A stretch of DNA of 64,000 nt from a virus: positions 74,209-138,208 of IMG/VR virus record IMGVR_UViG_3300002092_001548. One strand, written 5' to 3'. Numbering within the stretch: position 1 is the first letter of the stretch; each line of letters begins with the position of its first letter. This document shows positions 20,180 to 64,000 of the stretch, piece by piece. Made by a program: the position numbers and the translations under genes. Under the pieces are notes generated by a model. That model was given only the letters and a program-made list of their open reading frames with translations. It ran no database searches and was not told where the DNA came from.

Positions 20180-20593
20180 ATGAAATTCAAAAACATTTAC
20201 GGCAGAGAAGTAAATAAAAATATTACTCCTTATATTACAGACTGGAACGAAGTAAAAGGAAGCAAAGCGCAATTTAACGTAAAGAAATTTTTTGAACAAT
20301 ATTGGTCTGGACAAGTTATTTGTGAAGAATTTCCCGTGGCCGGGTCGAGAATGCGTTGTGACCTCATTAATTTTACAAAAAAGATTGCCGTAGAAACGCA
20401 CGGACAACAGCACGACAAGTTCGTACCCTTCTTCCACAAGAACAGAACAAACTTTAAAAACAGCTTTAAACGCGACCTAGTCAAATATAACTGGCTGGAA
20501 TTAAATGGTTTTACAGTAATAGAAATATTTGATAATGAAATCAAGGATTTGTCTCGTGAATGGATAAAAGAAAAGTTTGGTATTGAAATTTAA
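20180..20593 (+). CDS. Vsr/DUF559-like PD-(D/E)xK endonuclease
   Basis: RCDL...IAVETHGQQH...RD..K..W motif. Confidence 0.7.
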   Translation: MKFKNIYGREVNKNITPYITDWNEVKGSKAQFNVKKFFEQYWSGQVICEEFPVAGSRMRCDLINFTKKIAVETHGQQHDKFVPFFHKNRTNFKNSFKRDLVKYNWLELNGFTVIEIFDNEIKDLSREWIKEKFGIEI

Positions 20594-20617
20594 TTAAAAA
20601 TATTGTACTATAGAAGG

Positions 20618-21226
20618 ATGAGTACCTTTTATATTGGAGTAAGTGGGGTAGCAAGGGCTGGCAAAGATAGTTTTACAAACGCTCTTCTGCAAATCATTAA
20701 TAATGACGGTTTTAATGCAAAGCGTTTTGCTCTGGCTGAACCTCTGAAAAATGATTGTAAACAATTTATACACGACAAATTAGGCCTAGATGTCTGGACG
20801 GACAATACGGAAGAAAAATCTATTTTCAGAGAACTTCTAGTCTGGTACGGAAAAGTTAAACGCCAACAAACCCAAGGAAAGTATTGGACATCGCTTTTAG
20901 ATGAGCATGTAAGTCAAGTTAAACCAAAGGTTTGTATTATCTCTGATATTCGTTACCAACAATATGACGAAGATGAGGTTCACTGGCTTAAGAATAAAAA
21001 AAATGGAATTTTAATTCATATTGAAAGAACAGATATTGAAGGTAAGGTTATTCCCCCGGCCAATATGGACGAAACAATTAATGATTCGATTGTAAAAGAA
21101 CACGCCGATTACAAAGTATGTTGGCCTACAGTTGGTGTAGAGGATCTTTATCTTCTCGACACTTACGCAAAAAACGCTTATGATTCAGTAGTCCGAGAAA
21201 AACTATATGCAACAAAAAATTCGTAG
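20618..21226 (+). CDS. deoxynucleoside monophosphate kinase
   Basis: P-loop GVARAGKD, ALAEPLK, ISDIRY..E. Confidence 0.8.
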   Translation: MSTFYIGVSGVARAGKDSFTNALLQIINNDGFNAKRFALAEPLKNDCKQFIHDKLGLDVWTDNTEEKSIFRELLVWYGKVKRQQTQGKYWTSLLDEHVSQVKPKVCIISDIRYQQYDEDEVHWLKNKKNGILIHIERTDIEGKVIPPANMDETINDSIVKEHADYKVCWPTVGVEDLYLLDTYAKNAYDSVVREKLYATKNS

Positions 21227-22691
21227 TGTCAATGTAGAGAAGCACGTTCTAGCGGGGTTCATCAAGCACCCGCAGTCGTATCACGATGTAGCTCATTTTA
21301 TCAATGAGCAAGACTTTACTAATGGTCATAAGACTATTTTTGGGGTTATCAAGAATCAGATTATTCACAATCAGCCGCTTGACGCAGTTATTATTGCCGA
21401 GAAGATGAAGAATCTTGGTATTAACTTCAATAAGCCTGATTTTAATATTTTTGACTACGTTGAGAGTCTTACTTTCCTCAAGATTAGTGAGAAGTCACTA
21501 CTGGCATCATGTAAAGAGCTAAAAACCGTAACGATCAGAAGAGAAATTTCCGAAGTTTCCTCGCAAATTCAAGAAGCGATGGCTGGCGCTGGCGACCAGA
21601 GTCCAGATAAGATTATTAGTCTTGCTGATAAAATGTATAATGATAAGATTAGTGCATATGATTTAGATGTTAAACCTGAGGATTTATTTGCTAATATCGA
21701 GCAGATGATTGAAGAGAGGGCTAACGCGCCAGTTAGTGAATTAGGATACGTAACCCCTTATAAGAACTTTAATCAGATGTATGGTGGGCTAAGACCGGGA
21801 GAGCTATACGCTTGGGTTTCTCGACCAAAACATGGTAAGTCAACAATTCTTAATGATATCGCGACAAAGGCCACGATCATTAATCCAAAAATGCGATCAT
21901 TGGTTCTCGATACAGAAATGCAGACCAATGTAATGAAGTTCCGTATTGCAAGTGCCATCACAGGAATTCCAATGTGGTATCTTGAGACGGGTAACTTTAA
22001 AAATAATAAAGAGCTTTGGGCGAGATGGAACAGCAAGAAGACAGAACTATCAATGATTCAAGGTCGCGTGAATCATATGCAAGTTGCCGGAAAGCCAGTT
22101 GAAGAAATTGAATCAATTATTCAGCGTTGGTATTTGAGTGAAGTCGGCCGTGGAAATCCAGCCATTGTAGTTTACGATTATATTAAATTAACTGGTGAAT
22201 CTGGTAATGGAAATAAACAGGAATATCAATTGATTGGAGATAAGGTTGACTCGTTAAAGAACGTATCAGTTCGCCTTAACATTCCACTACTAACTGCCTG
22301 TCAGTTAAACAGGAGCGCAGAGAACGGAACGGATGATAGCTCTGCAATCGCACAGAGCGATCGTCTTCAGTGGTTTGCCGCTTATGTTGGTATATTTAGA
22401 AGAAAAACCCTAGATGAACAGGCAGAAGATGGATTGAACTATGGTAGCCACAAGATGATTGAATTAGCTGCCCGTTACCAAGGAAAGCATTCACATGGTC
22501 ATAGCGATCTTGTTAAGATCAAGGAAGGTAATCAGACCAAGTTTAAAAAGAACTTCATTTCTTTTGATGTTAATAATTTTAATGTAACAGAGAAAGCAAC
22601 CCTTCAAGAGATTGTTGATTCTAAAAATGGAATTAAAGTCGATGTATTCGACAGAGATTACAAGGAAGAAGACGACGAAGGACTACTATGA
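21207..22691 (+). CDS. dnaB: replicative DNA helicase
   Basis: N-terminal DnaB domain, SRPKHGKS, DTEM, YDYI, QLNR. Confidence 0.9.
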   Translation: MQQKIRSVNVEKHVLAGFIKHPQSYHDVAHFINEQDFTNGHKTIFGVIKNQIIHNQPLDAVIIAEKMKNLGINFNKPDFNIFDYVESLTFLKISEKSLLASCKELKTVTIRREISEVSSQIQEAMAGAGDQSPDKIISLADKMYNDKISAYDLDVKPEDLFANIEQMIEERANAPVSELGYVTPYKNFNQMYGGLRPGELYAWVSRPKHGKSTILNDIATKATIINPKMRSLVLDTEMQTNVMKFRIASAITGIPMWYLETGNFKNNKELWARWNSKKTELSMIQGRVNHMQVAGKPVEEIESIIQRWYLSEVGRGNPAIVVYDYIKLTGESGNGNKQEYQLIGDKVDSLKNVSVRLNIPLLTACQLNRSAENGTDDSSAIAQSDRLQWFAAYVGIFRRKTLDEQAEDGLNYGSHKMIELAARYQGKHSHGHSDLVKIKEGNQTKFKKNFISFDVNNFNVTEKATLQEIVDSKNGIKVDVFDRDYKEEDDEGLL

Positions 22692-23587
22692 ACCTATTTG
22701 AAGTATTAAAAGGCGCCGGGTGCCAACCTCGTAACTATGGAACGTATTATACATGTACTGCAAAGTATCGTGGCGGTGACGATCCTAGCTCCGTAGCCGT
22801 TTATCTTCAAACGCAAACAGTAAAAGATTTTGTTACTAGTAAAACAATGTCTCTAGAAGAGTTCTTAAAGAGAACCCTTGACTTGAAAACTCCAGAGCAA
22901 TTAAAGAAGATAATGGATGGCACGGCGAGTTATTTTTCTTCGGCATTCGATAATGACCAAGATGATCCATTCAATAAAACAACTCGTTATTATTCCAGTG
23001 ATGATATTGTTTCATTAATTCAAGACCCCTCATACTGGGAGGGGAGGGGTGTAAAAGAATCGGCCCTAAAAGATTTCAAGGGAGGGGTTTGTACTTCTGG
23101 TAAAATGTATAACAGATATGTCTTCCCAATATTTAACTCAAGAAATAAAATCGAAGGATTCTCTGGTAGAGATATATCTGGCAAGTCGCCCATTAAATGG
23201 AAGCATATTGGTAAAAAAGCAGATTGGGCATACCCTCTTATTTTTAGTTATAAATATATTACAGAACAGAATAGTATTATTTTAGTTGAAAGTATTGGTG
23301 ACATGCTATCGTTATGGCAGAGTGGAATTAAAAATTTAGGTGTAACATTTGGCACGGAAATGGGCGCAGGATTATTAAAAGCTATCTTGCGCTTAGATCC
23401 AAAAAGTATTATTATTGCAACTAATAATGATATAAACCAAGCTGGACAACGAGCGGCCACTAAGATCAAAAAGAAATTAGTAGAGTTTTTCGACGAGAGC
23501 CAGATTAAAATCTGTCACCCACAGAAGAATGATTTTGGAGAGCAGTCTGAACAAGAAAATTTAGCTTGGTTAAAAACTATAAAATAA
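22688..23587 (+). CDS. dnaG: DNA primase (TOPRIM), degenerate Zn-binding domain
   Basis: RYVFPI, GFSGR, LVESIGD, NND..G, NDFG; adjacent to the helicase. Confidence 0.8.
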   Translation: MNLFEVLKGAGCQPRNYGTYYTCTAKYRGGDDPSSVAVYLQTQTVKDFVTSKTMSLEEFLKRTLDLKTPEQLKKIMDGTASYFSSAFDNDQDDPFNKTTRYYSSDDIVSLIQDPSYWEGRGVKESALKDFKGGVCTSGKMYNRYVFPIFNSRNKIEGFSGRDISGKSPIKWKHIGKKADWAYPLIFSYKYITEQNSIILVESIGDMLSLWQSGIKNLGVTFGTEMGAGLLKAILRLDPKSIIIATNNDINQAGQRAATKIKKKLVEFFDESQIKICHPQKNDFGEQSEQENLAWLKTIK

Positions 23588-23588
23588 T

Positions 23589-24074: not shown

Positions 24075-25063
24075 GTGAACTAGTTAGACTTTCCGCAAGT
24101 AGGATTAAAACCCTACAGACATGTTCTTGGACATATTACGCAAACTATGTCCTAAAACTTCCACAAAAGAATAACTCTGGCGCGATGAGAGGTACTATTG
24201 CCCACTTGGTTTTTGAAATTCTCTCAAACCCAAGGCACGAGAAATATGTAAAGAAAATCATCAAGGCCGGGACATGCAAGAAAGTTAAATCTGTATGGAA
24301 ACTAATTTTCAAGAATGCTAAAAAAATGAACCTTGATTTAGATGAGATAGTCAAGCCTATCAAAAAAGAAGGGGATATGACAAACTTAAAATGCATTGAT
24401 ACAATGATTCAAGTTGGTCTAAAATATGATTTTATTAATGAGCAAAAATTAATAGGTAGTGAGTGGGCATTTGATATTACAAACGAAAGCCCTAAATATC
24501 GAATCCTAGGCTTTGTAGATCGACTTGTTGAAGATAATGGTACGCTAATTATCAGAGATTACAAGAGTAGCAAAAAAACATTTAGTGGAGAAGAGCTAGA
24601 AAGCAATCTTCAATCAATGATGTATTCATTAGCTGCCCGAAATAAATATCCAGACTATAAGAATGTTAATGTTAAATTTTTATTTCTAAGATATCCTGAT
24701 GCCCCAGAGCAATCATCTCCAGAATTCAGCGATATAGAATTAGCAGGATTTGAACATTATCTGGAGTATATCAGTAATCAATTACAAAACTTCACAGAAG
24801 AGAAGGGTAAGGCTAATTTTGCCAAGCATGACTTCAGTAAAAAATGGATGTGCCAAACAAAGTCTGGATGGAAATGTCCATACCTTGAGGCCATGCAATA
24901 CCAAGCCCTTGTAGATAAAGATGATAAGACTATTAAATGTATTTTTAATACTGAAGAATTTAAAGCAGAAGAAATTAAAGAAGGTTATAAGGTTGAGATT
25001 CGTAATTACGAAGGTTGTCCTGCATGGAAGACAAAAGTAATGAAAGATCCATTTGACTTTTAA
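24071..25063 (+). CDS. Cas4/RecB-like PD-(D/E)xK exonuclease
   Basis: LSASRI..C, GT.AH, GFVDR, DYKS, Q..MY, C-terminal Cys cluster. Confidence 0.85.
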   Translation: MSELVRLSASRIKTLQTCSWTYYANYVLKLPQKNNSGAMRGTIAHLVFEILSNPRHEKYVKKIIKAGTCKKVKSVWKLIFKNAKKMNLDLDEIVKPIKKEGDMTNLKCIDTMIQVGLKYDFINEQKLIGSEWAFDITNESPKYRILGFVDRLVEDNGTLIIRDYKSSKKTFSGEELESNLQSMMYSLAARNKYPDYKNVNVKFLFLRYPDAPEQSSPEFSDIELAGFEHYLEYISNQLQNFTEEKGKANFAKHDFSKKWMCQTKSGWKCPYLEAMQYQALVDKDDKTIKCIFNTEEFKAEEIKEGYKVEIRNYEGCPAWKTKVMKDPFDF

Positions 25064-25087
25064 CAAAAGTTATAATAGAATGGTGGA

Positions 25088-25648
25088 ATGCAATATATAT
25101 GCGTTAACCAAATCAATGAACAGGGTCTCCGTAGGTTTCGTCAGGAATTTTGGAATCTAGATAGAAATTCAGCACAACCGATAATTCCCATTATTATTGA
25201 CAGTTATGGGGGCGATGTTTATTCAGTTTTCGGAATGATTAGCTTGATTAAATCAAGTCATAAGAACATTGCTACAATTTGCGACTCAAAAGCAATGAGC
25301 GCCGGGGCAGTTCTTCTATCTGCCGGAACGAAGGGGTTAAGATTCGCAAGTGAATATGCTCATATCATGGTTCACGAGGTTCTAACGGGAAACCCCCACG
25401 CTAAAATCAGTGATATTAATATTGATACAAATCATGCGATGTCACTAAACAAGCAGATTTTCTCAATGCTAGATAAGAATTGCTCTCAGAAGCCCGGCTT
25501 CTTTTTGAAGTTGGTTGATACAAACAAAAATAGCAATTTATATTTAACTTCCAAACAGGCCAAAAAATATGGTATAGTTGATCATGTTGATGTTCCCAAG
25601 CTAGAAGTTAATACGGAATTTTCAATCTTGCAGTCCTCACTAAAGTAA
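25088..25648 (+). CDS. clpP: ClpP-like protease
   Basis: IDSYGGDV, AMSAG, MVHE, A.KYGIVD. Confidence 0.85.
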   Translation: MQYICVNQINEQGLRRFRQEFWNLDRNSAQPIIPIIIDSYGGDVYSVFGMISLIKSSHKNIATICDSKAMSAGAVLLSAGTKGLRFASEYAHIMVHEVLTGNPHAKISDINIDTNHAMSLNKQIFSMLDKNCSQKPGFFLKLVDTNKNSNLYLTSKQAKKYGIVDHVDVPKLEVNTEFSILQSSLK

Positions 25649-27017: not shown

Positions 27018-29551
27018 ACGAACAATTTTTAAAAGAATTCTCAGAAGTTAAAATCGAACGGGTTAATCTTGTTCGCTTACCAGAAATTTCACTAAACGAG
27101 GAAGAGAAGCAAAGCGTAACAAAGAAGGTTAAGTCTAATGACGAGTTTCTCCAACAATTAATTAATGATGGCTGGAGGAAGTTTAGAGACAAGGTTTCAG
27201 AAGATAAAAAGCAAGTTTATTTAGACCGCCTAAAGGAAGAATTTGAAATTGTACAGGATCTTGGGTTTGTTGACTATTTCTTATTGGTTTGGAGGGTTAT
27301 TAATAAAGCACGAAAACTTGGGGCATTTATTGATTGGGGTCGCGGCAGTGCTGCTGGTAGTTTGATTTTCTTCCTATTGGGCGTAACAGGAGTAGATCCA
27401 ATTGATAAGAAGCTATTCTTTACGCGATTCATTTCAAGGGTTCGCGCTAAGAAGGAAGTTATTGATGGAGTTACTTATATTCAAGGAGATCTTGCTCCCG
27501 ACGTTGATATTAACTTGGGCGGAGTTCGTGAAGAAATTATTCAATGGTTAAAAGTTTGCTATCCAAATAAGGTTGGTAAGATTGCCGCACTTTCAACATT
27601 TTCCGGAAAGATTCTAGTTAAAGATGTTTATAAAATCATTAATGAGGCAAATGAGGATATGGCTGTTGATCTGGCGGACACAATCGGAAAAACTTTCGGC
27701 GTAGTTGAGGATATCGAGGACTCTTACAAGAATAGCGAGAAGTTCAAGCAGTGGGCAGATACCTATCCAGAATCTTATGCAATTGCCCTAAAGTTGCGCG
27801 ATCTTATTCGTGGAAAGTCAACCCACGCAAGTGGGTACTTTATTTCATATTATCCCCTAAATGAGTTTGTTCCAACCGAATTAAATAAAGACGGTGAAAT
27901 TTCGATTGCCTATGAGATGAATACCGCCGCAAAGTTTGGTATTAAACTTGATCTACTTGGCTTGACAAGTAATGAAATTATCAAAGATGTTTTTGAGAGG
28001 ATTTCTGAAAAGCTAGAAGATATTGATTTAGACTCTAATCCAGATGTTTATACCCATCTTCAGAGCGATAATCTAAAACCATACGGCCTGTACCAGATTA
28101 GCGCAGATTGCGCCTATAGGGTATGTCAAAAAATCAAGCCAGCGAATATTCAAGAATTGAGCGATGTGAATGCTATAGCCCGACCTGGCGCCTTGGCGTA
28201 CGAAGATAAATATGTTTGTATGTCTGGCGAACCTCCACATGAGAAGTTAGCACATATCTTCAAAGACAGCCGAAATCTTCCCCTATATCAAGAGCAGTTG
28301 ATTCAGTCTCTAGTTGCCGTTGGGTTCACGCCAGATGAGGGCGAATATATCCGAAGAATCGTTGGTAAAAAGAAGAGAGAAGAAATGCCAAAGTGGAAAG
28401 AAAAAGTTTTCGAGACCTGTAATAAAAATGGGTTTGGAGATGCGGTTGCAGAGGCAATTTGGAAGGTCATGATTGATTCCGCAGATTATTCGTTTAACTT
28501 GAGTCATAGTTATTCTGTTGCCTATCTTGGCGCTCTAACTGTTTATTTAAAGTATAAATATCCATTAGAATTCTATACGGCATGTTTAAATGCAAGCCAG
28601 AGACTTCCCGATCCAATGGACGAAATTAGGCGAATCCAACAGGAGCTTCCACATTTTGGAATCAAACTCCTACCGCCGCACTTATTAAAGTCTGACATGA
28701 ACTTTAAGACGGATGGAAAGAATATTCGCTATGGACTTAGCGCTGTTAAGGGTATTTCTGATAGCGCTATGGAAAAGCTCGTTAATTTCCGTGGAGAATA
28801 TGATAGCAAGATTGATTGTTTAGTTGCGGCAAAACAAGCCGGACTTAACATTGGAGTTCTATCTGCCCTAATCCAAGCTGGCGCATTAGATGAACTAGGA
28901 ACAAAGAGAACCCGACTTGTTCTTGAAGCCCAGACTTATAATCTACTAACAGATCGTGAAAAGCGTTTAGTTAAGACCGTCCATGACGACACAGAAGAGA
29001 AAGATATCCTAAATATTATTAAAATGTTGAACGAGAAGCAGCAGATTAAGGATAGCCGTTTTGATACGATCAAGGGTAAGTACAATACTTACAAGGATAT
29101 TTACCAGTTAAATTCGCGTAACGAAGAGATCACAAACTATTTTTATGAGAAAAATTGCTTAGGATTTAGCTATAGTCAGAACCTAACAACTATTTTCAAG
29201 AAGAAGAATCCAGATTTTACCACTATCCGTAATATAATGGATCACAAGCAAGAAAATGACAAGGTTATTATGATTGGTCAGATCATTGAAACAAAGATTT
29301 CAAAGTCAAAGAATAATAATAAATTCTTCAGAGCAGTCGTTTCTGACGATACCGGAACGATAACAACCCTCATGTTTGACGGAAAACAGGGGCTATTTGA
29401 GGAATGTAAGCATGATAATGGTGGAGTTTTCCCAGAAGAGAATGATATCGTAGCAATTAAAGGAAGAAGAAAGGGTACAGATGCTATTTTTGCAGATAAA
29501 ATCGTAGTTCAAGATTGTAAGATATATAAGAACATGCGTGATTTAAAATGA
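27014..29551 (+). CDS. dnaE: DNA polymerase III alpha catalytic core (no PHP)
   Basis: GRGSAAGS, PDVD, KLDLLGL, YQEQ, YSFNLSH, C-terminal OB fold. Confidence 0.95.
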   Translation: MNEQFLKEFSEVKIERVNLVRLPEISLNEEEKQSVTKKVKSNDEFLQQLINDGWRKFRDKVSEDKKQVYLDRLKEEFEIVQDLGFVDYFLLVWRVINKARKLGAFIDWGRGSAAGSLIFFLLGVTGVDPIDKKLFFTRFISRVRAKKEVIDGVTYIQGDLAPDVDINLGGVREEIIQWLKVCYPNKVGKIAALSTFSGKILVKDVYKIINEANEDMAVDLADTIGKTFGVVEDIEDSYKNSEKFKQWADTYPESYAIALKLRDLIRGKSTHASGYFISYYPLNEFVPTELNKDGEISIAYEMNTAAKFGIKLDLLGLTSNEIIKDVFERISEKLEDIDLDSNPDVYTHLQSDNLKPYGLYQISADCAYRVCQKIKPANIQELSDVNAIARPGALAYEDKYVCMSGEPPHEKLAHIFKDSRNLPLYQEQLIQSLVAVGFTPDEGEYIRRIVGKKKREEMPKWKEKVFETCNKNGFGDAVAEAIWKVMIDSADYSFNLSHSYSVAYLGALTVYLKYKYPLEFYTACLNASQRLPDPMDEIRRIQQELPHFGIKLLPPHLLKSDMNFKTDGKNIRYGLSAVKGISDSAMEKLVNFRGEYDSKIDCLVAAKQAGLNIGVLSALIQAGALDELGTKRTRLVLEAQTYNLLTDREKRLVKTVHDDTEEKDILNIIKMLNEKQQIKDSRFDTIKGKYNTYKDIYQLNSRNEEITNYFYEKNCLGFSYSQNLTTIFKKKNPDFTTIRNIMDHKQENDKVIMIGQIIETKISKSKNNNKFFRAVVSDDTGTITTLMFDGKQGLFEECKHDNGGVFPEENDIVAIKGRRKGTDAIFADKIVVQDCKIYKNMRDLK

Positions 29552-32163: not shown

Positions 32164-32203
32164 TTGACATATTTATAAAATATTGTTATATTAGTAAGTA
32201 ACG

Positions 32204-32494
32204 ATGAATGTTACTTGGAAAGTTGAGGGCGCAATCGATTGGTTTAAAACAATTGTAGAAGATGTCTCGTGCTCTCCAATGGAGATCGCAACTAAAGTTA
32301 TTGAATCCCTAACCACATCTGAATTATCAGATAATATAGGATTAATCTTAATGGTTACCCATGACCAGATGGAATCTATAGATCAAACCTATGTGTGCCA
32401 TACTCCAACCGTTTTAGCCAATGCTGGATTTTACAAAGAATCAAAATACCTCCAAGATATGATTGACATGATTACCAAAAGTAATATAGAATGA
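32204..32494 (+). CDS. hypothetical protein
   Basis: ORF downstream of TTGACA-N17-TATATT. Confidence 0.55.
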   Translation: MNVTWKVEGAIDWFKTIVEDVSCSPMEIATKVIESLTTSELSDNIGLILMVTHDQMESIDQTYVCHTPTVLANAGFYKESKYLQDMIDMITKSNIE

Positions 32495-32500
32495 TCATAT

Positions 32501-32749
32501 ATGAAAAACATAATTCTTGCATTATTGCTAATTTGCTCATCAGCAAATGCTAATAAAGTTGCCGTCTGCGAAACACTATTTACAGGAACGGGAGATTCTC
32601 CGGCAGAATCAAACGATAGAGCAAGATTAAATATGTCTTTTGCAAAAGAAAGCGTAGAATTTCTTACTAGCGATACCCATCAAGTTAGTACTAATTGTTA
32701 TATAACCATAATTCGTGCACGTTATTTGGCCGATGTTCATAGTTACTAA
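32501..32749 (+). CDS. small exported protein
   Basis: Signal-peptide-like N-terminus MKNIILALLLICSSANA. Confidence 0.55.
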   Translation: MKNIILALLLICSSANANKVAVCETLFTGTGDSPAESNDRARLNMSFAKESVEFLTSDTHQVSTNCYITIIRARYLADVHSY

Positions 32750-36331: not shown

Positions 36332-36465
36332 AGCAAGTATATTTACATTTAATTTTTATTTAGCTACATATAAAATGTCTATAGATCGTCTATTTATCAA
36401 GATTGTAACACAACTGGCGGTATATTTTAATTGATTATGAGCACAATAAGTCTTATGATTTCTGA

Positions 36466-36999
36466 ATGAGCTACCAAACTAAAGTTAAAGAATTTATGCT
36501 AACCTTTGGACAAGAATGTCCTCCAAAACCAGTAGTAATTGATAAAAAGAATAGGATTTTAAGGGTCAAGTTGCTTCTAGAAGAGGTTTTAGAGCTTGCC
36601 GAGGCAAGCGGCGTAGAAATTGCAGTTGGTAATGACTGGATTGTAGATACTGATTGTGTCAAAAATGGCGTTATTTCTTTTAAAACAAATAATAATAATG
36701 TAGACCTAATCGGAGTAGCAGATGCGATTGCAGACATTTCTTACGTTAATTACGGCGCGGCAAATGCCTACGGAATTGACATTGAACCAATCGAGAACGA
36801 GGTTCACGCATCTAACATGACAAAGTTATTTACCACAGAAGAAGTAGATAACCTACCTAGTGGTGAATTTACCTATAATCCAGTTAGCTTAACAGGAAAA
36901 TGTCTTCTAGTTAAGAATAGGGATGGCAAAGTTCAGAAAAGCCCTTCTTACACACCAGCTAACGTCGCCAAGTATATTGAACAACAAATCAATGGATAA
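36466..36999 (+). CDS. MazG-like/PRA-PH nucleotide pyrophosphohydrolase
   Basis: LLLEEVLE, ADAIAD..YV..G, EVHASNMTK, DGKVQK. Confidence 0.85.
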   Translation: MSYQTKVKEFMLTFGQECPPKPVVIDKKNRILRVKLLLEEVLELAEASGVEIAVGNDWIVDTDCVKNGVISFKTNNNNVDLIGVADAIADISYVNYGAANAYGIDIEPIENEVHASNMTKLFTTEEVDNLPSGEFTYNPVSLTGKCLLVKNRDGKVQKSPSYTPANVAKYIEQQING

Positions 37000-37615
37000 T
37001 TCAGTTGAACTTATTGGTTGGTATGGTGGTGATACGGTTAATGCTTGTAGCGCATGGACTTCTACTAGCCGAGAGCTTACGGAAGATAAAAAAAACCGAA
37101 TTCCAGCACTATTAAAAATGTTAGCAGAAAATGGGCACGAAACACCATTTGAAAAGTCATCGCTTCACTTCCTAGTAAATACTGAGATCGCAAGTCATAT
37201 TCATCTCCTAAAACATAGAATCAGTTCCCTTAATGCCGAAAGTGCAAGGTATAAAGAGTTAAAAGAAGATAAATACTTCGTTCCCGAAGACTGGCCCACA
37301 GAGTGGAAAGAAAAGTTAGAAGAATATACTAATATTGGTAATGAACTTTATCATGAATGCCTCGCCGGATTGGAATCGTATGGTATTGACAGGAAGCGCG
37401 CAAAAGAATCTGCACGTTTTTTTAAAACATATAATTCTCAAATTCAAGCCGATGTTCAGTTTAACTTTCGTAGCTTTGTAAATTTTCAAAGGCTTAGAAA
37501 CTCAGAACATGCACAGGTAGAAATCCGAGACATTGCCTCGGAAATGTTAAATGCAGTTAAAAATATTGAAGGAAATCCATTTCAACACACGTTAGCCGCA
37601 TTCAATCTTGATTAG
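36992..37615 (+). CDS. thyX: flavin-dependent thymidylate synthase
   Basis: GHETPFE, KHRISSLNAESARY, KESAR, NFRSF..F..LR...HAQ.EIR. Confidence 0.9.
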   Translation: MDNSVELIGWYGGDTVNACSAWTSTSRELTEDKKNRIPALLKMLAENGHETPFEKSSLHFLVNTEIASHIHLLKHRISSLNAESARYKELKEDKYFVPEDWPTEWKEKLEEYTNIGNELYHECLAGLESYGIDRKRAKESARFFKTYNSQIQADVQFNFRSFVNFQRLRNSEHAQVEIRDIASEMLNAVKNIEGNPFQHTLAAFNLD

Positions 37616-37641
37616 TTTAACTAATTTCACTATAATAAATA

Positions 37642-38115
37642 GTGGACATGTTAGATAAAGAGCTCAATTCTGGAGTTAGTGACTTAAGTGTAACTATAAT
37701 GTTTTGCGCCGGGCCCAAAAGCTTGGTTAAATTTAACGATAACCCAAAAGATAACGTGTTTTATAACATCTTCTGTTTTCATATTAACGAAACAGGTCAT
37801 TATATAGTTTTTATCAAAATTTTCAAAGCCCTAAAAAAGAAAAATAAAGATGGTAATTATTTTAATTTAATAGATACACAAAGTAAAGTAATGACTTCAC
37901 AGAAGGAAACCTACCAATTTCTTGATGGTTTTTTAAATATTATTGAAGAACACCATAGGTTCGTCAATGATGAAGTTTTAACCGAAGGGGTTCTTAACGC
38001 GGTAGAAGCCATACAGTCCATACAGGAATGGGAGACATCAATGATTAATTATTTTAATGACTTGATACCCGACCAGTTCCCCAAAAGAAAACTGACTTTA
38101 AAAAACTTATTTTAG
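37642..38115 (+). CDS. hypothetical protein
   Basis: ORF after TTGATT-N17-TATAAT. Confidence 0.55.
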   Translation: MDMLDKELNSGVSDLSVTIMFCAGPKSLVKFNDNPKDNVFYNIFCFHINETGHYIVFIKIFKALKKKNKDGNYFNLIDTQSKVMTSQKETYQFLDGFLNIIEEHHRFVNDEVLTEGVLNAVEAIQSIQEWETSMINYFNDLIPDQFPKRKLTLKNLF

Positions 38116-38468: not shown

Positions 38469-38525
38469 AACTAAAATTACACGTAAATTTGACAAGCAGA
38501 CCAAAAACACCTACAATCACTTATA

Positions 38526-38879
38526 ATGAAGAAAATAATTCAACCAGAACAAGCAGAAGAATCCATTTATTTTTCTGATTTTACAGGTAAACCATTTATT
38601 GATGGGCTACCACCATCAATAGAACTTAAATTTAATTTTAATTATGGATCAAAATATGATGGCGCAAACCTAAACTTCCATCTTTCCGATCAGGATTTTG
38701 AAAGCCTTCTTCCAGTTTTGCGTGACAGGTTATCTCAAGATGCTAAAAAAGAATTGGGTAAAACACTTCACGAGTTAGATCTCCAGCTAGAAGATGGAAT
38801 ACAATCTAAATCTTATTCAGTTTGTGAATATGCCTCTAATGCCAGATTAGTAATTCTGAATCTTTTAGGGCTAAACTAG
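38526..38879 (+). CDS. hypothetical protein
   Basis: ORF after TTGACA-N17-TACAAT. Confidence 0.55.
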   Translation: MKKIIQPEQAEESIYFSDFTGKPFIDGLPPSIELKFNFNYGSKYDGANLNFHLSDQDFESLLPVLRDRLSQDAKKELGKTLHELDLQLEDGIQSKSYSVCEYASNARLVILNLLGLN

Positions 38880-40448: not shown

Positions 40449-41291
40449 TTAAAGAAATGGTAGATCTTTATAGATACTATCATAAGCACCAAATTTTTCA
40501 ATAAGTTTCTTTCTTCTTTTTTCTTGGGCAACGAGATAGAAATTATCCATACCAGTATCAATAGCAGAGCAATCACCAGTTTCATCAATCTCAAGAACCT
40601 GACATAGACCACAATCAATGTTGGCATTAATACCACCATTCTCATTCCAAATATTAGTTTTACCCATTGTAGGAGTATGACCATAGACTTGTTTTAATCC
40701 TTTGGATACATGACCTTCTTGGAAGTCATCACACCAAAGGATACCACCAACTTTTTGCATACCACCACGACAACGACCTACCGCACCAATGGTTTCATTC
40801 CATTTACGATTAAGATAATCATCAGTAGCTTTTGCAAGTTTATCAAGAATAACATCATTGCTCATACCTTTAATGGGATGTTCAAACCAATGAGGATGAA
40901 TACCAGCATGAGTAAACCAAACACCATTACCATAATGAGCAAACTTGATCTTATCCCAGTGCGATTCAGTCATTACACGATTAATGGCATCATCTTTCTT
41001 CATATCATAACCAGAGCAGTTATAGATATTCTGAAGACTACCAAGCGAATCCTTGATATAATTTAGATAAGAATAATTGATATCATGATTACCCATCAAA
41101 TGGATACGATTAGGCTTATCAAGCGATTCCTTGAGCCAAGTAGCAGTTTGAATTGCATCTTGCGCAGTATCGCCAAAATCATCAAAGTAATCACCAGTAA
41201 ACACGACAAGATGAGTCTTATCGTAAAGGCTCGCGATTTGTTCCGCCTCAACCCAATGATTGTGTACGTCTCCTATGGCTATGATGTTCAT
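40449..41291 (-). CDS. calcineurin-like metallophosphoesterase
   Basis: GDVH, GDYFD, GNHD, HAG, GHT. Confidence 0.9.
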   Translation of the reverse strand: MNIIAIGDVHNHWVEAEQIASLYDKTHLVVFTGDYFDDFGDTAQDAIQTATWLKESLDKPNRIHLMGNHDINYSYLNYIKDSLGSLQNIYNCSGYDMKKDDAINRVMTESHWDKIKFAHYGNGVWFTHAGIHPHWFEHPIKGMSNDVILDKLAKATDDYLNRKWNETIGAVGRCRGGMQKVGGILWCDDFQEGHVSKGLKQVYGHTPTMGKTNIWNENGGINANIDCGLCQVLEIDETGDCSAIDTGMDNFYLVAQEKRRKKLIEKFGAYDSIYKDLPFL

Positions 41292-41374
41292 TCTATAATT
41301 ATATTCTATTCTTTATATCAAGTCAATTCCAAAATACCGTTGACTCACCCTTCAAAAAACTGTAAATTATATAG

Positions 41375-41959
41375 ATGGATCATTTGAAAAAAGAAAACGT
41401 TCTGGTTTTAAACCGAAACTGGCAGGCAATTCATGTAAAGAACCCGGCCGAAGCAATATCAATGATGTATTCCGATTCCGCAACTGGACTTGATGTTCGC
41501 GGGGAAGATAATATGGTTCCATTAAAATGGAAAGATTGGCTTAATTTAGACATCGGTGAAAATGATGATTCTATTCAGACAGTTAGTGGAAGAATTAAAA
41601 TTCCAAAAGTTATTGTTCTTTGCACTTACGATAAAGTACCGAGAAAACGCCCCAAGTTTTCAACCAGAGCGCTTTGGGAACGTGATAATGGGACTTGTCA
41701 ATACACCGGGCGCCAACTTGTAATTGGCGAGGCAAATGTTGACCATGTAATTCCAAGATCCAGAGGCGGAAGGACTGATTGGACAAATTGCGTTATCACT
41801 CATAAAGAAGTTAATTCAAAAAAAGCAGACCGAACCCCACAAGAGGCCGGACTAAAACTAATTCGTCAACCTCTTCCCCCAAGAGATTTGCCATCTACTT
41901 TCTATATCCGAAATAAACACAATGTAGAAGAGTGGAATATATTCTTGACTTATAATTAA
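41375..41959 (+). CDS. HNH endonuclease (McrA-like)
   Basis: VLVLN, RD..CQYTG, DHVIPRSRGG..W.N, N..K. Confidence 0.85.
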   Translation: MDHLKKENVLVLNRNWQAIHVKNPAEAISMMYSDSATGLDVRGEDNMVPLKWKDWLNLDIGENDDSIQTVSGRIKIPKVIVLCTYDKVPRKRPKFSTRALWERDNGTCQYTGRQLVIGEANVDHVIPRSRGGRTDWTNCVITHKEVNSKKADRTPQEAGLKLIRQPLPPRDLPSTFYIRNKHNVEEWNIFLTYN

Positions 41960-41979
41960 AAGATTCTTATTATTCTTTA

Positions 41980-42720
41980 ATGCAAGTTAAAATGTTCAAA
42001 CGGGATCCATCAGATAAAATTCTTGACCGTTATTTTGGAAAGCGTAACCTTCTTCCGTATGCCAGCGTTCAGTCTGTTGATGCATATTTTGCACTACCAA
42101 AAAATGAGCGCGAACGGTTTGGGCTATATCTTCGTCCACTAGCGCTTCCCGTTACTGGCTTTTGGTCATCTAATCCAGATATTAAAGGATGGGCTTTATG
42201 GGAAAAAGAAATTAAAAAACAATATCCAATTCAAGCCTATATTCGTGAATTTCTTTTATCTTACGATAATCCAGTTTACGCATTTCTTTCACTAAAGAAA
42301 ACACAATTAAATGACCTTAAGTGGAAAATTAACCGTTTAATTAAACCACTTCACCCACGAATTCATAAGGCATATCGCCGCCACGAAGTAAAAGACGTTT
42401 CATCTGCGCTCATAGATGTAAACTTTGCTCTTATCTTAGATTTTTGTCACGAGGAGGTTACAAATAGCGTTGTATGTTGGACGCACGATAAGAATCATAG
42501 GGATTTTCATAATCAATTAAAGAAAGCTGTTAAATATATCGAAGTAGAGCGCCCGGCGCTACAGGTTCGGGCCGATAAGGAATTAACAAGGGGAACCTTT
42601 TCAAAAAAAAGTGGTGTTAATAAATATGCAAAGTATTACCAACTAGAACAAAAAATTGAACAGCGCGATACCGCAACAGTTCTTTGGGCAATTAACAATC
42701 GCGGTTTCTTCTGGACATGA
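41980..42720 (+). CDS. hypothetical protein
   Basis: 246 aa ORF with its own sigma70-like promoter. Confidence 0.6.
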   Translation: MQVKMFKRDPSDKILDRYFGKRNLLPYASVQSVDAYFALPKNERERFGLYLRPLALPVTGFWSSNPDIKGWALWEKEIKKQYPIQAYIREFLLSYDNPVYAFLSLKKTQLNDLKWKINRLIKPLHPRIHKAYRRHEVKDVSSALIDVNFALILDFCHEEVTNSVVCWTHDKNHRDFHNQLKKAVKYIEVERPALQVRADKELTRGTFSKKSGVNKYAKYYQLEQKIEQRDTATVLWAINNRGFFWT

Positions 42721-46431: not shown

Positions 46432-46485
46432 TTCTTATATTACACCTTTTTATTTTTATTATTTATTATTTAGATACCAAACCCA

Positions 46486-48994: not shown

Positions 48995-49096
48995 AAGTAG
49001 GAATTTCTTATAATTACACCGAAAAGCATAAAATAAGGGGGTGATTCCCATTAAAAAGTTCTTGCCAAACTATTAAAATACTTCCAATATACGAAT

Positions 49097-49615
49097 ATGA
49101 CAACTGTAAAAACACAAAAAACGTACAAGCTAAGTAACTTTGAGGCTGGTGATCGTTTTGAGATCCCCTCTGTAACAGAGACAATGAGGAATTTAGTAGT
49201 TATTTCTTCCAATATCTCCTCAACTCTGGTCGAAGGTGAGCGCCGAGATACGGTTTCCGACACTTGGAAGCCATTTCGGTTCCCAATTTCAAATGATGTA
49301 AATGCCGTTTTAGTAACTAAGGGCGCGCCAAAGATCACAGACTCTGTTAAGACTAACGCTACAGATTCTACTACACAAACGGAACCTACTGAGGCCCGGC
49401 GCCGTGGTCGTCCTGCAAAGCAGTCGAAACCCCTAAATGAACTGGGTGGAACAAAAGGCGAGTTCACTGTAAAAGATTTGGTGGCAAAGAACGACTTAAA
49501 AGAGTACGATGCCCATAATTTGGTTCGCTCGGCTATCAAGAATGGCTCCATTAAGGTTGTCAGAGAAGAGTCTGGTGGCCGGGGCAAGCCAAGAAAGGTT
49601 TATTGTCTAGTTTAA
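49097..49615 (+). CDS. putative DNA-binding protein with AT-hook and winged-helix-like C-terminus
   Basis: RRGRP motif; FTVKDL...GGRGKPRKVY. Confidence 0.55.
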   Translation: MTTVKTQKTYKLSNFEAGDRFEIPSVTETMRNLVVISSNISSTLVEGERRDTVSDTWKPFRFPISNDVNAVLVTKGAPKITDSVKTNATDSTTQTEPTEARRRGRPAKQSKPLNELGGTKGEFTVKDLVAKNDLKEYDAHNLVRSAIKNGSIKVVREESGGRGKPRKVYCLV

Positions 49616-50943: not shown

Positions 50944-50986
50944 AAAAGTATTCGAAGAATATATCTAATAGGGTGTAAAACCCTGT

Positions 50987-51190
50987 ATGGAAGCACCCGA
51001 CCACAACACTGAAAAATGGACTGCATTTTGCAAAGATGACGAAGCGGCCGAAGAGCTTCTTCAACAAAAGTGCCTAATTCTTTCACAAAGAAAGCTAATT
51101 ATTAGCGCGAAAAAGCAGTTAATGGAATCAAAATCACATCCACATGGATTATTCATTTATAAGTTTGTGATTATTACTTCTCCTAAATAA
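50987..51190 (+). CDS. hypothetical protein
   Basis: ATG 8 nt after GTGTAA. Confidence 0.4.
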   Translation: MEAPDHNTEKWTAFCKDDEAAEELLQQKCLILSQRKLIISAKKQLMESKSHPHGLFIYKFVIITSPK

Positions 51191-51307: not shown

Positions 51308-51326
51308 AAAAAGTGTAATTAATCCT

Positions 51327-53962: not shown

Positions 53963-54181
53963 ATGACAAACATTGAACTATCCTCCGATGTCGTTCTAAT
54001 CTCACGATTTATTTTATTCTTTTTTGCATTGATGTTTATTAGTGGCCTATGCTTTATTTTTAAGCCACTTAAAAAAGTAATTAAAAGAGCGCGCAAGGCA
54101 TCAAGAAGACATAAAGCTTGGAAGAAAAATAAGTTGACTCAAAAGCAAAATTCCCATACAATTGGGAATGGAAATAATTAA
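53963..54181 (+). CDS. small membrane protein
   Basis: One TM plus basic tail; GTGTAA-N8-ATG. Confidence 0.5.
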   Translation: MTNIELSSDVVLISRFILFFFALMFISGLCFIFKPLKKVIKRARKASRRHKAWKKNKLTQKQNSHTIGNGNN

Positions 54182-54377: not shown

Positions 54378-54435
54378 AAAGAATTGACACGGGGAATAAA
54401 TTGTATAATAATATATACATACTGATAATTACTGA

Positions 54436-54491: not shown

Positions 54492-54924
54492 GGGGGCGTA
54501 CTGGCTTCGACTCATATTCGGAGTTTGTATAGCATGCAGTAGTTGATCTGTGGCTACTTAAAAACGGATTAAAAACTAAACGCAAAGGCAATAACCAATG
54601 CAGTTAGCGCAGTTAAGTCAGCAATGACAAATGTTGTAGAATTCTTCTGCGAAGAAGAGAGCTACGCATTAGCCGCCTAACTCTAACAGAGGATCCTATT
54701 AAATCTTTTAGAAATCGTAGTAGGTTGAGTTAATCATGTGTTACTCGTTAAATAAGCATGAGGGTGTCTGTAGACTCTTCACTATAGAAGGTAGGACTCA
54801 AAACATGGATGGGTTAACAAGCCCTCGCAACCTTTAGTCAACCAAATGCGGAATTTGTTTAAGCATGTAGAAGTATAAATAAAAAAGTATGAACACGCGG
54901 GTTCGAATCCCGCCGCTTCCACCA
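54492..54924 (+). ncRNA. ssrA: tmRNA
   Basis: 5' GGGGGCG..TTCGAC; pk1 GTAGTT/GGCTAC plus GATCTGT/ACGGATT; tag frame 54582-54680 ending YALAA*; 3' T-arm GGTTCGAATCC and ACCA. Confidence 0.93.
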
Positions 54925-56252: not shown

Positions 56253-56327
56253 CGCAGAGTAGAGAACTGGTATCTCGTTACGCTCATAACGTAAAGGCAG
56301 TGGGTTCGATTCCCACCTCTGCCACCA
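56253..56327 (+). tRNA. tRNA-Met(CAT), initiator-like
   Basis: C1xC72 mismatch, G2-C71, C3-G70, A11-U24, A73, CCA; anticodon stem TTACG/CGTAA. Confidence 0.85.
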
Positions 56328-59298: not shown

Positions 59299-59466
59299 AT
59301 GTTAGATCCTCTAGAATCTGCTTGTTGGGGTTTCTTTCTTTTTCCTTTCTTATTTTATTGCATTTTTCATAAATATGGACTCTTATTCGGCGCTATTATT
59401 TCCTTGATTTTTCTCTCAATTATTGCTACACTCATAGTATGGATAACAATACAGACATCGATGTAG
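59299..59466 (+). CDS. small two-TM protein
   Basis: GTGTAA-N8-ATG; the ORF-track start lies inside tRNA-Ser. Confidence 0.5.
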   Translation: MLDPLESACWGFFLFPFLFYCIFHKYGLLFGAIISLIFLSIIATLIVWITIQTSM

Positions 59467-60405: not shown

Positions 60406-61336
60406 AATTTTTGTACAAATTGCGGCCTATAGAGATTTGCAACTTATTCCAACAATTAATGATTTATTAAATAAGGCGGACAATGACGATCAATTTACTT
60501 TTGGGGTCTGCTGGCAGTACGATGAGACAGAAAATATTAATTATTTTGATGGTAACAAAAGATTTCGCATAAAAAAATTTCACCATAAAGACTCACAAGG
60601 TCTAGGTTGGGCAAGAAGTCAAACAAATAACCTTTATGACGGAGAAGAATTAACCCTACAATTAGATTGTCACCATCGTTTTAAACAGGGGTGGGACACG
60701 TTAATGATAGAAGATTATCATAATGCTTTAAAATTATCAGAAAAACCAATATTAACAACATATTTGGCGGGATTTCAGCCAGAACAATCCGAATTTGAAC
60801 CTGTTCCACGCCTAATGTCTCAATATAAATTCAATGAAGAGCATTTATTATTTAGCCGATCTACTCCAATTATAGATTACAAGACAAGACATGAAATTAT
60901 CCCAACAAGAATGCTGTGCGGACATTTTTATTTAGTTAATGGGTTATTTATAAATGAAGTCCCGTATGATCCAGATATTTATTTTGGCACGGGAACAGAA
61001 GAGGCGACTATGAGCGTAAGGGCATTTACAAACGGTTATGACTTTTATAGTCCATATCGTCAATATATTTGGCACCAATATAATAAATTACCTATACCAA
61101 AACATTTTATAGATTACCAACCCGTAACTAAAGACATTTTTTCAAAAAATAAAACTCGCCAATTATTTGGACAATATAATTATAGCATAGACCTTGAGAG
61201 ATATGGACTAGGAAATAAAAGATCCCTAAATGATTATCAAAAGTTTTGTGGTATTGATTTTAAAAATAGACACATAGATCAATATACCTTAGATAACAAT
61301 CCGCCACCAAATCCAAATTTTAGTATTGCAAAATAA
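60395..61336 (+). CDS. GT60-like (Skp1/polypeptide GlcNAc transferase family) glycosyltransferase
   Basis: IFVQIAAYRD, SQGLGWAR, LQLDCHHRF..WD, VPYDP, EE..S.RAFTNGYD, WH.Y. Confidence 0.8.
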   Translation: MKNKIFVQIAAYRDLQLIPTINDLLNKADNDDQFTFGVCWQYDETENINYFDGNKRFRIKKFHHKDSQGLGWARSQTNNLYDGEELTLQLDCHHRFKQGWDTLMIEDYHNALKLSEKPILTTYLAGFQPEQSEFEPVPRLMSQYKFNEEHLLFSRSTPIIDYKTRHEIIPTRMLCGHFYLVNGLFINEVPYDPDIYFGTGTEEATMSVRAFTNGYDFYSPYRQYIWHQYNKLPIPKHFIDYQPVTKDIFSKNKTRQLFGQYNYSIDLERYGLGNKRSLNDYQKFCGIDFKNRHIDQYTLDNNPPPNPNFSIAK

Positions 61337-61360
61337 TTAAAATTGGTTTACACTTTCCGC

Positions 61361-61630
61361 ATGAGTCAACTTATAACACAATTAGTAGAACCACCTAAAA
61401 ATGTTCTAACTGAAACGTATTTAATTGAGATTTTAATACCCGGCAGCGAGAAATGGCTCGATGCTGGGCTCACAAGCCGTTGGAAAACTTTCGAGGAAGC
61501 GGATAAAGAAATGACAACAATAGCTTCGGCATATAATAACCAGTATAAATTCCGCGTGAGTCACATTGTTTGCACGGAATCAATTCTAAAAGAAATTGCA
61601 GGAGAAAGAATAATTGCCTTGCTTGAATAA
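61361..61630 (+). CDS. hypothetical protein
   Basis: ATG 6 nt after TTGCAA-N17-TACACT. Confidence 0.5.
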   Translation: MSQLITQLVEPPKNVLTETYLIEILIPGSEKWLDAGLTSRWKTFEEADKEMTTIASAYNNQYKFRVSHIVCTESILKEIAGERIIALLE

Positions 61631-62299: not shown

Positions 62300-62307
62300 T
62301 ACCCACA

Positions 62308-62562: not shown

Positions 62563-62567
62563 TATAT

Positions 62568-62756
62568 ATGACTTGCTTAAATTTATTGCGAATACTTAAA
62601 ACGTTATCTTCTGAGCAATTAGCCACACAAGTAATAGTTCGGGATTCTAAAAACAACCTATTCACAATTGAACGGGTGGAAAAAGAAGAGCTTAACGATA
62701 ATTGGGAAACAGTGTCAGATGATACTGTCACAATATTAATTTCAAATATTATATAA
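62568..62756 (+). CDS. hypothetical protein
   Basis: Packed ORF. Confidence 0.45.
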   Translation: MTCLNLLRILKTLSSEQLATQVIVRDSKNNLFTIERVEKEELNDNWETVSDDTVTILISNII

Positions 62757-63098: not shown

Positions 63099-63335
63099 AT
63101 GACTAAGAACATCTGGAAACAAGCAATCATTGATGAGCTAATAACCACGGGCATCTACACAGAAGAGTGGGCGAAAGATCCCAAGAAGGCTTTGCATCAC
63201 ATTGCCTGTTGGCATACAGAGGTAGGGATGCATTATGAGAGGGAGAGTAGATGGACATATATGCTTAGAGCAAGACTGAACTATTATTGGTATAAGACAA
63301 TACGGAAGATGTTTAAGATTCAGCCTCCTTTTTAG
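63099..63335 (+). CDS. hypothetical protein
   Basis: Packed ORF. Confidence 0.5.
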   Translation: MTKNIWKQAIIDELITTGIYTEEWAKDPKKALHHIACWHTEVGMHYERESRWTYMLRARLNYYWYKTIRKMFKIQPPF

Positions 63336-63364
63336 TTGACATTTCCTCCTAAAACATATAGACT
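63336..63364 (+). promoter_or_regulatory. sigma70-like promoter, probably leaderless
   Basis: TTGACA-N17-TAGACT-N6-ATG. Confidence 0.7.
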
Positions 63365-63370
63365 GTAATA

Positions 63371-63607
63371 ATGGAACTCATTAAAGAACCCTATCCACAT
63401 TATAGAGAGGAAGACATTTTCAGTATTCTCAATGATGAAGATAAGAAGCTCTGGTGTAACTTTATCTATGGTCAAACTGTTCTAGTGAGAGATGATGGAG
63501 GATCTGGAATCTATGAGACTGATTGGAATAGGTTTGAGAGGATGCTAAGGAAGAGATCTTTGGATAAGTTGACTAAAGAGGCTCAAGAGCTTAAAATGGG
63601 GTATTAA
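63371..63607 (+). CDS. hypothetical protein
   Basis: ORF with its own promoter. Confidence 0.55.
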   Translation: MELIKEPYPHYREEDIFSILNDEDKKLWCNFIYGQTVLVRDDGGSGIYETDWNRFERMLRKRSLDKLTKEAQELKMGY

Positions 63608-63608
63608 T

Positions 63609-63896
63609 ATGAGTCAATATTCAGATATTATTTCGGATGGTGGTATGGATCCTAGAGCTGATTATGAAGCTAAAAGAAAGGTTCAAAACCTAGAATCAAG
63701 TATAAAAGATCTCATTGAAGGTGGTATGCAGTATAAGAAAGAAAGAGATGCTCTTATGAAGGTTCTTAAATCCTTAGTATGTACTGCTCAGAAAGATGAG
63801 ATCAACAAAGATCATTTAGATATAACATTAAGAAGAGCTAGGAATGTTATTGCTGATATTGATCCAACTATTGAGAAGTGTGATTGTTGTTATTAA
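63609..63896 (+). CDS. hypothetical protein
   Basis: SDIISDGGMDPR motif; coiled coil. Confidence 0.5.
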   Translation: MSQYSDIISDGGMDPRADYEAKRKVQNLESSIKDLIEGGMQYKKERDALMKVLKSLVCTAQKDEINKDHLDITLRRARNVIADIDPTIEKCDCCY

Positions 63897-63901
63897 TTTT
63901 C

Positions 63902-63930
63902 TTGACTTGTCCTAAAGAATCATATAGACT
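63902..63930 (+). promoter_or_regulatory. sigma70-like promoter, probably leaderless; ORF starts at 63937 and leaves the window
   Basis: TTGACT-N17-TAGACT-N6-ATG; shares CATATAGACTGTA with the 63336 promoter. Confidence 0.7.
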
Positions 63931-64000
63931 GTATAAATGAATAAAGCACTAAAGAAGGCAGCAAAGAACTATAAAGAGAAAGTTCGACAGCCTGTTACTA

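Follow-up and report, generated by a model that had tools for sequence, protein, structure and literature searches.

Why do promoters of a phage end, time after time, exactly 6 nucleotides (nt) before an ATG, and what would this layout do for the genes that it serves? The question is raised by a 64,000-nt stretch of virus DNA, hereafter the window, which corresponds to bases 74209-138208 of the 138,208-bp IMG/VR record IMGVR_UViG_3300002092_001548 (linear, 37% GC, estimated to be 89% complete). A sequence-only reading of the window had described pervasive leaderless transcripts from sigma70-type promoters and had put them forward as an undescribed system, a phage programme that biases translation toward the phage's own messages. 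Our analysis of this phage (G000) and of its relatives indicates that the promoters are fused to ATG codons in such a way that the first gene of a unit would be read from a leaderless mRNA. Leaderless transcription is strongly predicted from this layout, and we consider it probable that the layout is a family trait reflecting adaptation to the host rather than a new device for taking the host over.

All 14 sites named in that reading carried the pattern TTGnnn-N17-(nAnnnT)-N5..8-start, and the ten that had been called exact all had a 17-nt spacer and a gap of 6 nt between the -10 box and the ATG; the exceptions in the list were 8473, which has a poor -35 box, and 37642, which begins with GTG. 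The sites have the hallmarks of sigma70-type promoters, namely a TTGACA-like hexamer, a spacer of 17 ± 1 nt and TAnnnT, with 10-12 of 12 matches at the best of them. When -10-to-ATG distances were plotted genome-wide, a check proposed together with the original description, the histogram showed a spike at a gap of exactly 6 nt. A loose pattern (TTGNNN-N17-NANNNT followed by ATG) gave 32 matches at gap 6 and 27 at gap 7, compared with 6-14 at the other gaps and an expectation of about 10 per gap from 20 third-order Markov shuffles. In a strict test, which required at least 9 of 12 matches to TTGACA-N17-TATAAT and an ATG that opens an open reading frame (ORF) of at least 50 codons and which covered gaps from 0 to 60, the genome had 16 sites at gap 6; each of the other gaps had 0-5 (mean 0.79; Poisson P ~6e-16), among them 2 at gap 5 and 2 at gap 7. 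The spike was present with an N17 spacer and absent with N16 or N18. At gap 6 the usual +1, the seventh base after the -10 box, falls on the A of the ATG. Without selection on the start point itself, a spike limited to one position would be difficult to account for. The layout is a product of selection and not of chance.

How widespread the layout is within the genome depends on how it is counted. Genes were called with a home-made caller (longest ORF, codon score) that under-calls small early genes and sometimes moves the start upstream to a TTG or GTG, as with 20603 in place of 20618. About 49 candidate sites scored at least 8 genome-wide. The window contains 24 of them, and about 15 precede small ORFs on the minus strand within the first 20 kb. 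The candidate sites differ from one another; the start codon is ATG at 40 of the 49 and GTG at 9, mostly the weakest matches, and the weakest candidates probably arose by chance. The term pervasive therefore needs qualification, as of the 118 called genes that start with ATG, 16 had a TANNNT ending exactly 6 nt upstream, compared with 1-11 for the remaining gaps. The window has about 33 unit-first genes, and roughly half of them carry one of two signals: a sigma70-type unit at a gap of 5-8 (about 9 genes) or GTGTAA or GTGTAT at N8, a second class described below (about 6 genes). One or two more have a 10-11-nt gap; eight further sigma70-type units lie close behind a preceding gene.

The same layout is kept in diverged relatives. 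In IMG/VR the family comprises 33 loci with a homologue of the window's metallophosphoesterase, on contigs that reach 199 kb; identities range from 31% to 87%, and 32 loci fall at 49-87%. In two relatives, G004 (complete, with terminal repeats) and G002, whose metallophosphoesterase proteins are about 53-54% identical to that of the window, the strict count at gap 6 was 22 and 21, respectively. A pattern search of five relatives returned 28, 13, 33, 26 and 5 matches (sum 105) for the N6 pattern, 10, 8, 6, 7 and 4 (sum 35) for an N10 version, and 3, 3, 4, 5 and 2 (sum 17) for a reversed control; many of the G002 and G005 matches are near-identical repeated cassettes and so are not independent events. 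Across 30 non-duplicate loci of metallophosphoesterase orthologues, a promoter with at least 8 of 12 matches that ends 5-8 nt before the ATG was kept in 24, at exactly gap 6 in 18; one promoter lay at gap 9 and five loci fell below the threshold, at least one of which still reads TTGnnn-N17-TATTAT-N6 by eye. The promoter spacers of these orthologues differ between clades. The Thermus phage phiYS40, used as a positive control, also peaked at gap 6 (7 sites with a -35 box, 15 with the -10 box alone). By contrast, the Bacillus phage Slash (35% GC, Shine-Dalgarno-using), our negative control, had zero matches at gaps below 20 and a cluster at 20-38, which is the usual leadered layout.

The predicted 5′ ends have properties consistent with direct initiation. 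At most strong sites no in-frame start lies upstream, and an in-frame stop occurs within 0-14 codons. Five promoter-fused ORFs have Pfam domains, which start at residues 1-8 in the dNMP kinase-like, ClpP-like, MazG-like and metallophosphoesterase proteins and further in in the HNH protein. In 30 putative leaderless messages the first 25 nt had a mean fold energy of -0.28 kcal/mol, compared with -0.66 kcal/mol for other gene starts and -2.01 kcal/mol for 455 internal ATGs (P = 3e-9), and these 5′ coding ends are 49% A. We then scored Shine-Dalgarno (SD)-like words of at least 4 bases located 3-20 nt upstream of called genes and of random positions. The earlier remark that SD motifs are rarely evident was borne out and strengthened: such words preceded 18% of 145 called genes in G000 against 17% of random positions, 16% against 16% in G004 and 10% against 20% in G002, while the controls gave 71% against 19% (Slash) and 51% against 19% (phiYS40). 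Upstream of starts, A is frequent and G scarce, and 57% of cases have T at -1.

From these observations we infer where transcription starts, which polymerase reads the sites and how the messages are translated. The sites would most likely be read by the host's main RNA polymerase holoenzyme, with transcription starting on the A of the ATG, so that the first gene of each unit would be made from a leaderless mRNA whose 5′-terminal AUG would be bound by a ribosome carrying initiator tRNA. Downstream genes would probably be reached by re-initiation at overlapping or abutting stop/start junctions or by entry on spacers that are rich in A and unstructured. Of the 122 pairs of neighbours on the same strand, 66 overlap or are separated by at most 10 nt, which fits re-initiation. 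The phage-specific GTGTAA-N8-ATG class would do likewise for other genes, including virion genes, and may be read by a phage sigma-like protein. The total lack of SD motifs across the family suggests adaptation to the host's way of starting translation, and the arrangement is most likely an adaptation to a host whose ribosomes can do without SD pairing.

The window carries replication, nucleotide-metabolism and sugar-metabolism genes as well as 13 tRNAs and a transfer-messenger RNA (tmRNA), and its promoter-fused units serve a variety of genes; the sigma70-type units given here lie on the plus strand except for one. Those with an N17 spacer and an N6 gap front a dNMP-kinase-like gene (20583-20620, ATG 20618; phrog_139, with PF04275 matching from residue 8 at profile position 1), a ClpP-like protease gene (TTGACT-N17-TAGAAT-N6-ATG, 25053-25090, ATG 25088) and a MazG-like pyrophosphohydrolase gene (36431-36468, ATG 36466; PF01503 from residue 7 at profile position 1). 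The metallophosphoesterase unit lies on the minus strand (41289-41326, ATG 41291; PF00149 from residue 1), has 11 of 12 matches in TTGACT-N17-TATAAT-N6-ATG and is the divergent partner of the HNH endonuclease unit (41340-41377, ATG 41375). Further N17/N6 units are found at 41945-41982 (ATG 41980; 246 aa, no family match), at 49062-49099 (ATG 49097, with the weaker -10 box CAATAT), at 59404-59441 (ATG 59439), at 61326-61363 (ATG 61361) and in two sister cassettes at 63336-63373 (ATG 63371) and 63902-63939 (ATG 63937, the ORF continuing past the window end). An N7 gap is seen at 2168-2206 (TTGACT-N17-TACTCT-N7-ATG, ATG 2204) and with an N17 spacer at 20144-20182 (ATG 20180), an N17/N5 arrangement at 37608-37644 (GTG 37642, with an ATG 6 nt further on) and 54134-54170 (ATG 54168), and an N8 gap at 38489-38528 (TTGACA-N17-TACAAT-N8-ATG, ATG 38526) and 32463-32503 (TTGACA-N18-TAGAAT-N8-ATG, ATG 32501). 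Four of these, 59439 (N6), 2204 and 20180 (N7) and 32501 (N18 spacer, gap 8), had not been listed in the sequence-only reading. Two units have longer gaps: TTGACA-N17-TATATT-N11-ATG at 32164-32206 (11 of 12 matches), which belongs to the gap-11 peak and has a predicted leader of about 4-5 nt, and a perfect 12 of 12 consensus promoter at 2774-2815, 10 nt before ATG 2813, with a predicted leader of about 3 nt.

The cassettes at the end of the window resemble repeated early-type cassettes of the relatives. Their spacer, with a CCTCC run, is conserved across diverged relatives (G005:C1:2868-21217, minus strand; G004:C1:13210-28381, minus strand), and the CCTCC-containing box of the 63371 unit is common with those cassettes, which points to a bound regulator or to some constraint other than that on the two hexamers. 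Near-identical promoter cassettes number about 16 in G002 and at least 8 in G005, within the first 8-21 kb; in G002 (G002:C1:220-8101, plus strand) the roughly 16 promoter-N6-ATG cassettes lie within 8 kb, each fronting a small ORF.

Outside the window, the record encodes a terminase, RIIA, PhoH, a 1960-aa ORF and many large ORFs without a PHROG family. When 10 genome proteins were scanned against PHROGs (E <= 1e-5), TerL, RIIA and PhoH were matched and 7 of 10 had no family, including six large ORFs of the presumed virion region. The DNA sequencing runs that contain the phage sequence carry freshwater or lake metagenome labels. No close relative was found among cultured phages, and a megablast of 12 kb was empty.

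Besides the promoters, the sequence-only reading had counted an initiator-like tRNA and a tmRNA among the parts of its programme. The tRNA-Met (56253-56327, plus strand) has the marks of an initiator, namely a CAU anticodon, an unpaired C1xC72, A11:U24, G2:C71, C3:G70 and A73, all identical in G004 and G002. Its stem contains A29:U41, C30:G40 and G31:C39, and the three consecutive G:C pairs (29:41, 30:40, 31:39) are absent from the tRNA-Met of each of the three phages. The window copy and those at L069:13660-13734 and L078:3318-3392 are 96% identical and show one compensatory change, which affects a pair of the anticodon stem. This part of the proposed programme is conserved in three of three phages; the tmRNA (54492-54924, plus strand) is real, but an ARAGORN scan detected none in two of two relatives, G002 and G004. 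A TTGACA-N17-AATAAT promoter (11 of 12) at 54384-54412, about 80 nt before the tmRNA, is among the few strong sigma70-type sites that do not adjoin an ATG. The ribosomal protein bS21 is encoded in two of five family records, at L086:1495-1677 (plus strand) in G002 and L085:1486-1668 (minus strand) in G005 (60 aa; Pfam E = 3e-14 and 9e-17, respectively), and was not found in this phage, G003 or G004. No SD motif lies upstream of the phage bS21 genes, and all 44 bS21 homologues found come from metagenomes, on contigs as long as 216 kb; none has a named cellular source.

It is possible, if unlikely, that the phage uses such parts (the tRNA-Met, bS21 in some relatives, the tmRNA, perhaps the balance of the initiation factors IF2 and IF3) to re-tune initiation toward its own leaderless or SD-less messages. 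The tRNA-Met argues for this, since it keeps its initiator marks and its 96% identity across three phages with metallophosphoesterases that are about 53-54% identical, as does the presence of bS21 in two of the five records. In Escherichia coli, excess IF3 is reported to inhibit leaderless initiation as well as SD-less re-initiation, on both of which the phage seems to depend, and C30:G40 and 3GC initiator mutants are reported to be defective, the C30:G40 mutants binding poorly at the P site (PMC2268962); the parts would fit an IF3-poor route. For phiYS40, the idea of a shifted IF2/IF3 balance has been put forward in a review (PMC3594737). Against the idea, no IF3_C or peptide deformylase gene was found in five of five family records, a Pfam scan of 40 window proteins gave no match to a translation factor, and the tmRNA and bS21 were not found in several family members as stated above. 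Moreover, with ATG fusion in both promoter classes, no switch in message type from early to late can be seen, and nothing shows that host messages differ from phage messages. We give similarly little credence to a fuller version, in which the family would run a complete SD-free, IF3-sensitive mode of initiation, with leaderless first cistrons, SD-less re-initiation and dedicated parts (a tRNA-Met lacking the G:C pairs on which IF3 proofreading relies and, in some members, bS21). If it were true, initiation on phage messages would follow a route (70S or IF3-poor) less used by host messages, and mesophilic lake phages would hold a natural, portable alternative-initiation kit.

The second promoter class bears on which sigma factor reads the sites. 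GTGTAA occurs 66 times in the genome, 11 times with an ORF-opening ATG at a gap of exactly 8 and 0-3 times at each other gap; in the relatives, G004 had 6, 3 and 4 sites at gaps 8-10 and G002 showed no clear peak. In the window the gap-8 class is represented at 50973-50989 (plus strand), with further GTGTAA boxes that start at 51313, 53949, 56666 and 59285 (plus strand) and at 46445 and 38482 (minus strand), and a baseplate-like gene there is fronted by it. The class also fronts large ORFs of the presumed virion region. As both classes adjoin the ATG, host-type and phage-type promoters alike are fused to start codons. The genome also encodes a protein with sigma70 region 2 (27458-28156 of the genome, outside the window; 25.9 bits, above the cut-off), and the 200-aa gene at 2204-2806 of the window, which has its own N17/N7 unit, has a weak region-4-like match (17.4 bits, below the cut-off). 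A phage-supplied sigma, instead of the host's main sigma, might accordingly read the TTGACA/TATAAT boxes, for instance in a Bacteroidota host, and the messages would still be leaderless. The SD absence and the bS21 lead described below would fit such a host, in which E. coli-type promoters reportedly fail (PMC6847099). We nevertheless judge this quite improbable, because the boxes match the general bacterial consensus with its canonical 17-nt spacer, because the tandem small genes look early from their layout and would need a polymerase at injection, and because the GTGTAA class is the more natural target of a phage sigma.

It is very improbable that transcription starts a few bases to either side of the A, or that read-through dominates, so that "leaderless" overstates the case and most protein comes from leadered or short-leader messages: a small secondary peak at gaps 10-11 (5 sites at gap 11, predicting leaders of 4-5 nt) that includes the perfect consensus promoter, the several units that lie only 6-26 nt behind the preceding gene, and terminator-like hairpins that are not above shuffles (15 against 11.7) speak for it, but the fall from 16 sites at gap 6 to 2 on either side, the peak at the same gap in the reportedly leaderless phiYS40 and the selectively unstructured 5′ coding ends speak against it.

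Several observations weigh against the reading that we prefer, in which leaderless first-gene messages reflect host adaptation. About 14 of the roughly 33 unit-first window genes have neither motif. Between 32 and 50 kb there were 77 promoter-like matches against 69.7 in shuffles; since this total is not above the shuffles, raw counts of such sites were not used. The signal is thus carried only by position relative to the ATG, and weak single sites such as 8473 and 49097 could be chance matches. A check of RNA runs for 10 kb of the window listed none. Host adaptation is itself something we infer; the only hints to the host (the SD lack, the A-rich upstream regions and bS21 in two relatives) point to SD-poor phyla. 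Finally, promoter type and translation type do not yet point to one known host group, because the boxes here are TTGACA/TATAAT and those of Bacteroidetes are reported to be TTTG/TAnnTTTG.

The host question was approached from several sides. Few SD-led genes are reported for Planctomycetes, Chlorobi, Bacteroidetes and Cyanobacteria (PMC5397173), Bacteroidetes hosts have been predicted for lake phages that carry bS21 (PMC9723584), and Bacteroidetes are described as having TTTG/TAnnTTTG promoters and mostly leadered messages (PMC6847099). The nearest Atlas clusters of the phage bS21 are labelled Bacteroidota (score 0.88), which we take as a lead only. A Bacteroidetes-type promoter was considered and rejected: TAnnTTTG had 78 matches in the window against 90.6 expected, and the -10 boxes at the sites of the sequence-only reading lack TTTG. 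WhiB is a marker of actinophages, and no WhiB gene was found in this phage; psbA was not found in the five records. An Atlas look-up of Gmd gave no host information. The only match in a genome collection was one 1.8-kb contig (L040) of a public metagenome-assembled genome, a fragment of a relative with 76% identity and the promoter layout at gap 7. This genome was rejected as a host clue because it is a poor bin: 20 sampled contigs were 1-3 kb long, ranged from 27% to 64% GC and looked mixed. Protein searches with ribonucleotide reductase (RNR), Pol III alpha, TerL, RIIA and DnaB returned distant matches only (about 23-32% identity, about 60% for RNR) from many hosts and gave no host inference, and no kinship with Thermus phages emerged among the best 15-20 matches or the top organism names.

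As a principle, the layout is not undescribed, contrary to what the sequence-only reading had proposed: it is in print for the Thermus phages phiYS40 (PMC3594737) and Lalka27a (2026 preprint), which like this phage are large and low in GC, with most promoters adjoining start codons. The Lalka27a preprint reports that most transcripts are leaderless; a review says so of most middle and late transcripts of phiYS40, links this to raised IF2 and lowered IF3, and already proposes phage-biased translation through leaderless messages (PMC3594737). Our histogram for phiYS40 peaks at gap 6, as it does here. The two phages nonetheless differ in several ways. The leaderless class of the 2007 phiYS40 study reportedly consisted mainly of -10-only middle and late promoters, whereas here full -35/N17/-10 promoters and the GTGTAA class carry the layout. 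phiYS40 uses SD motifs, as its 51% against 19% shows, and the present family does not; the end of its tRNA-Met is paired (G1:C72), whereas that of this phage is C1xC72.

Other parallels are partial. Leaderless genes of Deinococcus-Thermus, Actinobacteria and Leptospira are reported to have TANNNT about 6-7 nt before the start (PMC12340547, PMC5243855), but these cellular genomes keep SD motifs for leadered genes (about 70% in Leptospira, PMC5243855), and this phage family has none. The lambda cI mRNA from PRM has its AUG at the very 5′ end and is translated leaderless (PMC10491246); it represents one regulatory transcript of a phage and host that use SD motifs, whereas here the layout is a genome-wide habit. 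T4-type early genes are SD-led. The PeSL cassettes described for T4-type phages, like those seen here, repeat strong sigma70-like promoters before small early genes (PMC2839356), but PeSL pairs the promoter with a terminator hairpin, and the cassette here stops 6 nt short of the ATG. Bacteroidetes and other SD-poor phyla share the absence of SD motifs and the A-rich, unstructured pre-start regions (PMC6847099, PMC5397173, PMC7797042), yet in Flavobacterium johnsoniae 87% of mRNAs are reported to have a leader longer than 10 nt and promoters are of the TAnnTTTG type (PMC6847099), in contrast to the TTGACA/TAnnnT abutting the ATG here. A limited literature search found no description of the layout for lake phages or in combination with a complete lack of SD motifs. 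The principle appears to be that of phiYS40, in an unrelated mesophilic family that has full -35/-10 promoters plus a phage-specific class, no SD motifs and a conserved odd initiator-like tRNA.

Leaderless initiation has usually been studied in a few hosts, in lambda cI and in Thermus phages, and here a family of abundant lake phages appears to use it. Gene callers that seek ribosome-binding sites will misplace starts in such genomes, and the fixed 6-nt rule offers a simple aid for correcting starts and locating transcription units. Promoter type and translation type, taken together, narrow the range of candidate hosts. The conserved odd initiator-like tRNA provides a testable link between start-codon selection and phage biology. 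Even if host adaptation is all that lies behind the layout, the family would still be a clean natural data set, with several dozen leaderless starts per genome.

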